Positions 20,901 through 23,900 of a stretch of DNA of 64,000 bases are shown here, one piece after another. A program made the translations under genes and the position numbers. The notes beneath the pieces were generated by a model. The model did no database searches, was not told the DNA's origin, and was given only the letters and a program-made list of their open reading frames with translations. The stretch is taken from positions 44,702,001 through 44,766,000 of the forward strand of contig OZ024740.1 in assembly GCA_964016885.1 (NCBI GenBank). The letters run 5' to 3'. Position 1 is the stretch's first letter. Each line of letters begins with the position of its first letter. This DNA comes from Eledone cirrhosa (taxonomy: Eukaryota).

Positions 20901-23900
20901 TTTAGCCCAACATATATATCTTCCTTTATCTTCAAGTTTGACATCAGGTATCACCAAAGAATAAATATCATCATTTATGTTTTGTAACTGAATTCGTCCA
21001 TTAGCTTCTATAACTTTTCCTTCTTTCATCCTGAAAAGTAAAATAACCAAACTATTTAAAGATGTTGATAAGCTACAACACAGCATATATTAGAAGATTT
21101 AAGATACATTTCATGTTGATATAACTACAATTTTTTTAAATTAGGCTTCTTCTGTGTAAACATGCAACTATTTATCTGTACACAGAACATAAAAAATTAC
21201 CCTTATACTATTCGGAAATTTTGTATCCTCATCAGAAGATAACTACCCATATGATTCTGTCTAAAAAGAAATTTTTTAATAGCATCAATATATGTCAAGC
21301 AAGATGTGGAATATAGCTGAAACAGGCAGGCTAATTTACATCAATTTTATACATTTGGTGATGTAATTAATTAAATAAGTGGATGTAAAATATTAATTAT
21401 GTCAATAAACATATGTATGTCTTTCTTCCTTGCCATAATTGCTATATCTATTTTGGTCATGGTTATGTTTGTTGTTTTGGTCAGTGTCATCATCACTATT
21501 GTTTTAATATCTGTTTCTTTTTTTCTTGCTGACCTAAGCTAAACATGTATAGAACTTCTTGTCATGTTCTTATTTATTTCCTTAAAGTCCAGGATCTGAG
21601 ATCTACCTGGACACATCACATTATATTTCCTTCCATTACAGGTACTGTCTAATGTCAGTATATAACACTTTTTCAACTAGCACTCTTCATCCACTGTCGA
21701 TATAGGTGTACCCATCACACCTGCAGACATCAACTAATAGGTTTAATCCTTTCATTACCATAATTCTAATGAAAGACACTCCATATTCTTGATTATTTTC
21801 AAAGGGATTTGAAAAATATAGGCAGAGATTTAATAAAATAACCTTTTAATTAAGAAGTTAGTGTCTGGAACATAAAGTTTATTAGATAAAATTATGGTGG
21901 AACGTTTTTAGTTACATATAAACATTTAAAAATAAACAACTTAGTATCCCAGAATCTGGGATGATTTTGATTATTTTGGTGTGAAAAGGATTAATGTTGA
22001 AACACTCTCTCTGTACAATTGTTTCAATTTTCATACAGATATCCAAGGAATATTGCTTCCTTCATTTCTATCTTCTCTCCACATGTCCTCTACATTCAAT
22101 AAATCATGCATCATTTCTATCCAGTCACCACATGTTTTCTACATTCAATAAATGTTGCTTCCTTCATTTCTATACAGTCTCCATATGTTTTCTATATTAA
22201 ATGAATATATTCTATCCTGTCTCCATACATCATCTATATTCAATGCTCATATCTCAATATCATGCAGCATTACTCATTTTACACATACCTCATACTGTTT
22301 TAATTCATAATTAATGAAATAAAACTTTTATTACCAACAGAAATAACATTTTCCTAAACAATATCCACTCTTTTACTATAATTACTATACTATCGTATAA
22401 TTACTATTCTACTGATAGTAAAGCACCTGAGGTCGCTGCTGAGATTAAACAGCCAGAGGTAGCAGTACCTGAGGTAACTGCTGAGATTAGGTTACACAAA
22501 CTATCAACTACATCTAGTGAGCTATCTGGATAGTTTGTGGATTTTTAAAACTATTCATATCACACATTATTCCTTTCATTACAATATTTCTAATGAAAGA
22601 CACTGCTTATTATTTTTAAATCATTTTGAAAATAATCAAGTATGTTTAGGGATTTTGAAATATTTCAAATTCTCTTATTATTTAATTGGTGTTTTGAACA
22701 AAGTTTCAAACATAGAATTAGATAAACATAAAACATTTAAAATAAATAGCTTAGCATTGTAGAACTAGAGGCAGTCTAAGACAGTTTAGTAATGAAGGAG
22801 TTAATAACATTACATTAACAGAAAAGAAAAAGAAAATCACCAACCATGTAACTATTGGATCTGGAGTAGCCACAACACGGCATTCAAACTTGGCTAACTT
22901 CCCTTCTTCAACCAAACAATCATCCATTTTGAGAATATACTGAGGTTGTTCTCCTTGTTTTACAATGCCTTCCTCTTCAGATGGCATAGAACATGTACCT
23001 ACATCTTCAGCTGGTGGTATTGCAGGATGTTCAGTTACAGAAATTTCTGGTACTTTTTGGTCTTTCTTAACCTCAGGTGCCTTCTCTTCTGGCTTCTTAA
23101 CCTCAGGGGCCTTCTCTTCTGGTTTCTTCTCCTCTGGTTTCTTAACCTCAGGTGCCTTCTCTTCTGGCTTCTTAACCTCAGGGGCCTTCTCTTCTGGTTT
23201 CTTCTCCTCTGGTTTCTTAACCTCAGGTGCCTTCTCTTCTGGTTTCTTAACCTCAGGTGCCTTCTCTTCTGGCTTCTTAACCTCAGGGGCCTTCTCTTCT
23301 GGTTTCTTCTCCTCTGGTTTCTTTATCTCAGGGGCCTTCTCTTCTGGTTTCTTCTCCTCTGGTTTCTTAACCTCAGGTGCCTTCTCTTCTGGTTTCTTAA
23401 CCTCAGGTGCCTTCTCTTCTGGCTTCTTAACCTCAGGAGCCTTCTCTTCTGGCTTTTTCTCCTCTGGTTTCTTAACCTCAGGGGCCTTCTCTTCCAGTAC
23501 TTTCTCTTCTGGTTTCTTAATCTCAGCAGTTACCTCAGGTACTGCTACTTCCGGTTGTTTAATCTCAGCAGCGACCTCAGGAGCCTTCTCTTCTGGCTTT
23601 TTCTCCTCTGGTTTCTTAACCTCAGGGGCCTTCTCTTCCAGTACCTTCTCTTCTGGTTTCTTAATCTCAGCAGTTACCTCAGGTACTGCTACCTCTGGCT
23701 GTTTAATCTCAGCAGCGACCTCAGGTGCTTTACTATCAGTAGAATCTTCAGGTTTAGGTGATACTTTCTCTTCTGGAATTCCTGTAAAATAAAGATTTTA
23801 TTATATTTAATTTTTAATAAACAATAAACAGAAATAAAATAATGGAATTATACAACGTATTTTGTTGTAATTAGATCATTTATCTAATTAATCAAAACTA

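Follow-up and report, generated by a model that had tools for sequence, protein, structure and literature searches.

Origin and possible role of an intronic inverted copy of a repeat exon in an obscurin-like gene of Eledone cirrhosa

Why should an intron carry, letter for letter, the reverse complement of 84 nt of the exon that precedes it? Such a pair is found in a 64,000-nt stretch of the genome of Eledone cirrhosa (assembly GCA_964016885.1, contig OZ024740.1, positions 44,702,001 to 44,766,000; hereafter the window, the numbering of which is used throughout), where intronic positions 22406-22489 are the exact reverse complement of exonic positions 23662-23745, the complementarity extending 0 nt further at both ends. 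The original prediction regarded the pair as a candidate exon-intron double-stranded RNA, acting either as an editing-complementary sequence (ECS) or as a splicing switch, and remarked in passing that it might instead be a recent templated insertion from DNA repair. Direct comparison confirmed the perfect 84-bp antisense copy and all the coordinates given for it. The question that remains is whether the copy reflects a regulatory element or the way in which a DNA lesion was once repaired.

The inverted copy, its host exon and its reality

The donor of the copy is the beginning of a 937-nt exon (22845-23781, minus strand) that contains K/P/E-rich tandem repeats followed by the first half of an Ig domain. 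The exon runs from phase 1 to phase 2, and is bounded (minus strand, 23781-22845) by an acceptor reading TTTTACAG before the exonic GA and by a donor reading ATG at the exon end and GTTGGT in the intron; in run X4 this donor is joined to the exon beginning at 21030. The exonic arm (23662-23745, minus strand) begins 36 nt past the acceptor, codes for 28 residues and holds 26 adenosines on the sense strand. The inserted intronic arm (22406-22489, plus strand), which is antisense in the pre-mRNA, begins 355 nt past the donor (22844 minus 22489), and is recognized by its exact complementarity, by its DNA depth and by a GC content of 45%, compared to 21% and 29% in the adjoining 100-nt flanks. A further match, anticipated as partial and with a few mismatches, is provided by the 144-nt duplication inside the exon, as unit 2 (23518-23581, minus strand) aligns to 22426-22489 with 3 mismatches across 64 nt (22452, 22455 and 22458, all synonymous), the first 20 nt being absent. 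Along their whole 144 nt, units 1 and 2 show 4 differences. Within the 3.0-Gb genome of the species, the full 84-mer was found only at these two sites, with unit 2 as a further match, among the 40 of 1269 candidates scored with the query 22250-22700.

The host gene looks obscurin/UNC-89-like rather than titin-like, judging from domain order rather than from a tree. Pfam searches with 11 exon frames yielded, in transcription order, Ig, Ig, SH3, no match, PH, Ig, the repeat exon, Ig, Ig, fn3 and fn3, and the presence of SH3 and PH between runs of Ig domains is what we take to be the obscurin/UNC-89 layout. Like obscurin/UNC-89, the host gene has Ig repeats, SH3 and PH, then Ig and fn3, in the same order; unlike it, there is a long fn3 run downstream, and no match was obtained for RhoGEF in the single fragment scanned or for the kinase motif on the minus strand of 464 kb, where intron-split motifs can escape. 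One of the three matches of the upstream Ig is nematode UNC-89 (37% identity), and the match of the exon's Ig half, at 96% across 9% of the query, is to a protein of Octopus bimaculoides that carries a titin-like label. No other cephalopod copies of the repeat exon were seen among proteins of up to 2000 aa. From these domains, the host also looks like a muscle gene, and “PEVK” is a composition label for the exon. Two side observations concern this part of the gene. In run X5, which bears another organism label, depth reaches 157.7 at 22458, compared to about 15 in those contigs that look single-copy and about 18 where the unique sequence starts, which suggests that the 22-residue repeat unit is expanded to several copies in that organism. 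In addition, an inverted pair of dispersed repeats (24644-24737 and 25740-25833, 77% alike over 94 nt) flanks the upstream Ig exon at about 25017-25269 in a loop-out geometry.

It is very improbable that the 84-nt copy was made by the assembly process. The repetitive nature of the exon could favour such an artefact, as could the absence of a right-junction contig among the pieces listed for the DNA run X1. However, when the de Bruijn contigs of X1 were compared over 22215-23055, one contig, with a depth of 11.7 and 0 differences, was seen to span the left junction and to reach 30 nt into the arm, the stop at that point being the expectation for a branch at k=31. Depth amounts to 22 in the arm contig, 11.7 in the flank and 11.8 in the 3′ part of the exon, which gives an arm-to-flank ratio of 1.88. 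Moreover, no indels appear among the differences listed, and none of the 15 joints listed (of 43) bypasses the arm. X1 is perhaps the assembly's own sample, and represents an independent method rather than an independent individual. Since the ratio of 1.88 is closer to two copies per locus than to the 1.5 expected if heterozygous, depth indicates that this individual is probably homozygous, with the insert on both chromosomes. The insert may be common or fixed, a situation compatible with drift, selection also being possible. As a separate observation, the three sites at which unit 2 departs from unit 1 in the assembly fall inside a 7-nt stretch (22452, 22455 and 22458; window 23518-23587), yet the X1 and X4 contigs, which judged by depth span all three, list 22458 only, reflecting either an allele difference at the repeat or a listing rule of the tool.

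The insertion site and the origin of the copy

The arm lies within an old dispersed repeat, the left part of which (22211-22395, plus strand) is broken at the insertion, and the right part of which (22490-22536, plus strand) resumes immediately after the arm. The left part is defined by a profile match at 22211-22371 (E = 9e-7, with a high composition bias of 42 bits) and by alignment up to 22395, and the right part by genome matches together with a profile match at 22488-22532 (E = 5e-10). The first 22 nt to the right of the arm have 87 genome matches at no more than 1 mismatch, compared to 0 for a control pattern, and the sequence upstream of those right-flank copies resembles the left flank in the window. 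Positions 22250-22395 were aligned to 18 repeat copies (L023 being left out as a duplicate of L022). Over aligned columns, identity between the host repeat and its family amounts to about 61-68%, and the z score of the left-flank alignment over shuffles is at least 4.6 in 11 of the 18 copies. The distance between the end of the left homology and the right anchor is exactly 34 nt in 10 copies, and 33 and 36 nt in two more, so that the window holds 94 nt, namely a 10-12-nt local direct copy and the 84-nt exon copy, where the family mostly has 34. An older continuous sequence has been interrupted and replaced, as is characteristic of templated insertions.

Two other characteristics of templated insertions are apparent at the site. 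On one hand, the template of the 84-mer is nearby and its donor is intact. On the other hand, more than one template was used, given that the inverted 84-nt segment is accompanied by a 12-nt direct local one. This second templated segment, TATAATTACTAT (22396-22407, plus strand), is a direct copy of 22377-22388 (plus strand) within the left flank, and its final AT is the first AT of the arm. Local 12-mer repeats of this kind occur at 302 of the 53593 complex positions in the window (0.56%). Regarding the junctions, microhomology is 0 nt demonstrable at the first, 2 nt (AT) at the middle and 1-2 nt at the right, where the arm ends in TTA and the family copies have A in 17 of 18 cases and TA in 6 of 18; these lengths fall within the known range and are not above chance. 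A hairpin in the right flank (CACAAACTATC / GATAGTTTGTG) was considered as a third templated piece, and was not counted because its left arm belongs to the old repeat. Neither a target-site duplication nor a poly(A) tract was found at the insertion, which shows a deletion instead; the marks of LINE-mediated insertion (class 1 TSIP) are thus lacking. The same intron is also occupied by a degenerate 53-nt tandem (3 copies, 22053-22206) and by two pieces of a second abundant dispersed repeat (21743-21947 and 22558-22750).

The explanation that we consider very likely is that the 84-mer is one of two templated segments which, in a recent deletion-insertion, took the place of about 34 nt of an old intronic repeat, that the event arose by template switching primed at microhomologies while a break was being repaired or DNA replicated, and that the 84-mer probably lacks a regulatory role. 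What had been put forward as a side remark on DNA repair is therefore strongly supported by the paralogous empty sites. In such a scenario, the broken 3′ end of the minus strand would prime about 1.2 kb back through a match of 1-2 nt (A or TA), copy 84 nt of the exon and be released, after which it would rejoin, via AT, a left end already lengthened by the short local copy. The exon would have served as template simply because it lay within reach, and the simplest route would be that the minus-strand end folds back and primes on itself 1.2 kb back. An RNA template may fit the orientation equally well, the gene's own transcript being reverse-transcribed from the minus-strand end; DNA and RNA templates cannot be told apart here because the copy spans no exon junction.

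Several observations weigh against this explanation. The microhomologies (0 nt at the first junction, 1-2 nt elsewhere) are short and at chance level in AT-rich DNA, the remaining 8 of the 18 repeat copies show other spacings (33, 36, 31, 41, 52, 25, 14 and 4 nt), and 5 of the 18 left-flank alignments do not rise above shuffles (z below 2). Furthermore, 84 nt taken from 1.2 kb away exceed the 3-30-bp flanking insertions attributed to polymerase theta (PMC7165422). Finally, non-transposon copies of this type are infrequent, in that each of the three comparable isolated perfect pairs examined within 1.064 Mb turned out to be a transposon-like repeat.

The copying event is young, as read from sequence identity. 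Arm and donor show 0 differences in 84 positions, which sets a 95% bound of 3.5% on their divergence, whereas the host repeat has moved much further from its family; the copy also agrees with unit 1 at all 3 sites separating unit 1 from unit 2. Run X5 covers the arm, and neither the adjoining flank nor the 3′ part of the exon, so that it supplies no orthologous intron; its first arm bin is about one copy deep (17.7 if 12 nt are covered), a weak hint of no second copy that was not counted as evidence. The RAD run X6 has no reads over the arm.

The genomic background of inverted pairs was surveyed in 1.064 Mb of the same genome by means of seed-and-extend scripts. Local inverted pairs with an exact stretch of at least 40 nt filled 53 rows (some of them overlapping), 22 of which, including the present pair, had at least 84 nt. 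At roughly one per 50 kb, sequences able to form perfect duplexes are thus common, but exon-derived ones are not: no second exon-derived inverted pair was seen in the 1.064 Mb, a minority of the candidates having been tested, and three isolated perfect pairs that were examined proved to be multi-copy repeats (1413, 194 and 909 candidates). The survey also revealed a number of mobile sequences. Inverted repeats that are long, near-perfect and separated by short spacers turn up at a density of about one per 20 kb, and the arms of some exceed 1 kb (genome samples L034-L133); they are described here as foldback-type or long-TIR elements, and as a large source of intronic double-stranded RNA. Three multi-copy units are very young: for those of 127 nt (L090:3308-3434) and 113 nt (L133:5749-5861), 40 of the 40 copies scored are 100% identical, and for one of 251 nt (L092:6754-7004) the copies are 96-100% identical; the 127-nt unit often occurs in inverted pairs 0.5-4.5 kb apart, and all three units are likely active DNA transposons. 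Inside the window, a transposase remnant at 13112-13807, presumably mariner-like from its motifs, lies between 105-nt inverted repeats that are 93% alike (12976-13876), and two LINE-like fragments (1230-2784 and 6959-8517), 96% alike over 1.56 kb, are found in nearby introns.

RNA pairing, editing and splicing

An accidental origin does not settle the present function of the 84-mer. Folding of 22300-23830 on the minus strand at equilibrium, a rough approach for a fold of about 1.5 kb, predicts formation of the exon-intron duplex, with a perfect 84-bp stem of -168.5 kcal/mol and a mean pair probability of 0.99 for unit 1. The proposal that two pairing registers could compete does not hold at equilibrium, as the unit-2 register (-127.9 kcal/mol) has P = 4e-8 versus 0.99 for unit 1. 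In any case, the duplex would last only until the 1.8-kb intron is spliced out.

It is known that long perfect duplexes are edited promiscuously, and a newborn ECS could be envisaged in which the accidental copy pairs with the exon before splicing and ADAR acts on many of the 26 adenosines in a minority of transcripts or in neural ones. We consider this unlikely. On one hand, the strength of the predicted duplex argues for it, and so does the fact that the arm would remain attached until about 1.4 kb of further intron has been transcribed. In addition, 19 of the 26 possible A-to-G changes on the arm are non-synonymous, so that editing would recode K to E/R, E to G, D to G, T to A, I to V, S to G and Q to R. 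It has also been described that coleoids edit their RNA extensively and that repeats are targeted in every tissue (PMC9068888). On the other hand, squid seldom recode robustly outside the nervous system: 91% of the robust recoding sites are neural, and in non-neural samples editing stays below 1% at 94% of recoding sites (PMC9068888). The host, moreover, looks like a muscle gene. Nor was a sign of conservation seen in X5, the run with another organism label, over the part of the locus that it covers.

ADAR recoding, the headline reading, finds no support in run X4. Among runs of which none is catalogued as RNA, X4 proved RNA-like: its depth is nil at 22215-22388, and a loose end at 22844 corresponds to the next exon. 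A 2202-nt contig with a depth of 506.7 contains the arm with 0 other letters, a result that speaks at majority level only. Together, this main contig and the unit-2 contig yield the bin depths observed over 22406-22458 to within 0.1; the depth is fully accounted for over those positions, and therefore no edited contig is hidden there. Accordingly, A-to-G changes over the exonic arm are absent at majority level in this one run, in which contigs drop minority variants and the intron, with it the insert, is uncovered. A>G differences occur at 3 places in X4, and the one among those listed (22578) lies in a repeat.

A role of the stem in altering the inclusion or the length of the elastic exon is more doubtful still, and we regard it as highly implausible. 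The location of the exonic arm 36 nt from the acceptor, where it could mask enhancers, and the enclosure of the donor within the loop would both favour such a switch. Nevertheless, skipping of the 937-nt exon joins phase 1 to phase 2 and yields VTIIER followed by a stop, and the exon end lies inside an Ig domain. Given that the skipped form runs into an immediate stop and that the exon holds half an Ig, tuning of the spring through inclusion of the whole exon, as had been suggested, is not available. In the fold, moreover, the predicted unpaired probabilities of the donor are equal with and without the arm, and those of the acceptor region shift by at most 0.15. In X4, a 2131-nt contig with a depth of 746.7 crosses the donor junction from the exon and continues for about 1.9 kb, so that it is continuous from the donor into the next exon. 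SOS splicing was also considered and rejected: it is reported for elements in mRNA, and two intronic transposon insertions were not spliced in that way (PMC12779559).

Significance and comparison with known systems

There is only an outside chance that a perfect ECS for a coleoid coding exon arose here de novo, in one repair event with template switching. If this were true, carriers would hyper-edit up to 26 adenosines of an obscurin-like elastic segment, and non-carriers or sister species would not. The locus would then represent a dated natural experiment on the birth of cephalopod recoding clusters, with repair scars as a general route to exon-intron ADAR substrates. Its value lies in being a clean test case, in which the ancestral site is known from paralogs and the arm is both perfect and young. 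The presence of editing would reveal one concrete origin of new recoding clusters in an octopod, and its absence would indicate that even a perfect 84-bp stem is outpaced by splicing or by the ADAR levels of the tissue.

Exon-intron ECSs such as that of the GRIA2 Q/R site are old, conserved, imperfect and site-selective. The present arm resembles the GRIA2 element in that it complements a coding stretch from within the downstream intron and lies a few hundred nt beyond the donor, but differs from it in being young, perfect, embedded in a decayed repeat and devoid of majority editing. In the open-access literature, we found no published account in which a templated copy derived from an exon serves as a new ECS.

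In Osia et al. 2021 (PMC8421209), germline templated insertions of the MMBIR-like type (MMB-TI) number 103 in one person and 99 in another, of which 33 and 26, respectively, are multi-template. The insertion in Eledone shares with MMB-TI a length of at least 25 nt, the use of several nearby templates, one of them inverted, short microhomologies (at chance level here), an intact donor and a germline setting; unlike the insertions of that report, its far template is 1.2 kb off and is a coding exon of the host gene, and the organism is a mollusc rather than a human. Polymerase theta produces insertions (TINS) of 3-30 bp copied from break-flanking DNA, as stated by Carvajal-Garcia et al. 2020 (PMC7165422). 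The combination of deletion and insertion in AT-rich DNA, with several rounds of synthesis and both direct and inverted segments, is similar here. Of the two segments, only that of 12 nt lies within the size range, and it fits well, while the one of 84 nt, copied from 1.2 kb away, falls outside it. Finally, the class 2 TSIPs of Onozawa and Aplan 2016 (PMC5110952) and the four-point template switch of Loytynoja and Goldman 2017 (PMC5453318) resemble the present site in that a microdeletion is patched, that target-site duplication and poly(A) are lacking, and that paired inverted repeats are created without selection. TSIP donors, however, are distant and proposed to be RNA-derived, whereas the donor here is local. 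As a scar, the insertion would be an ordinary case of a well-documented germline kind.
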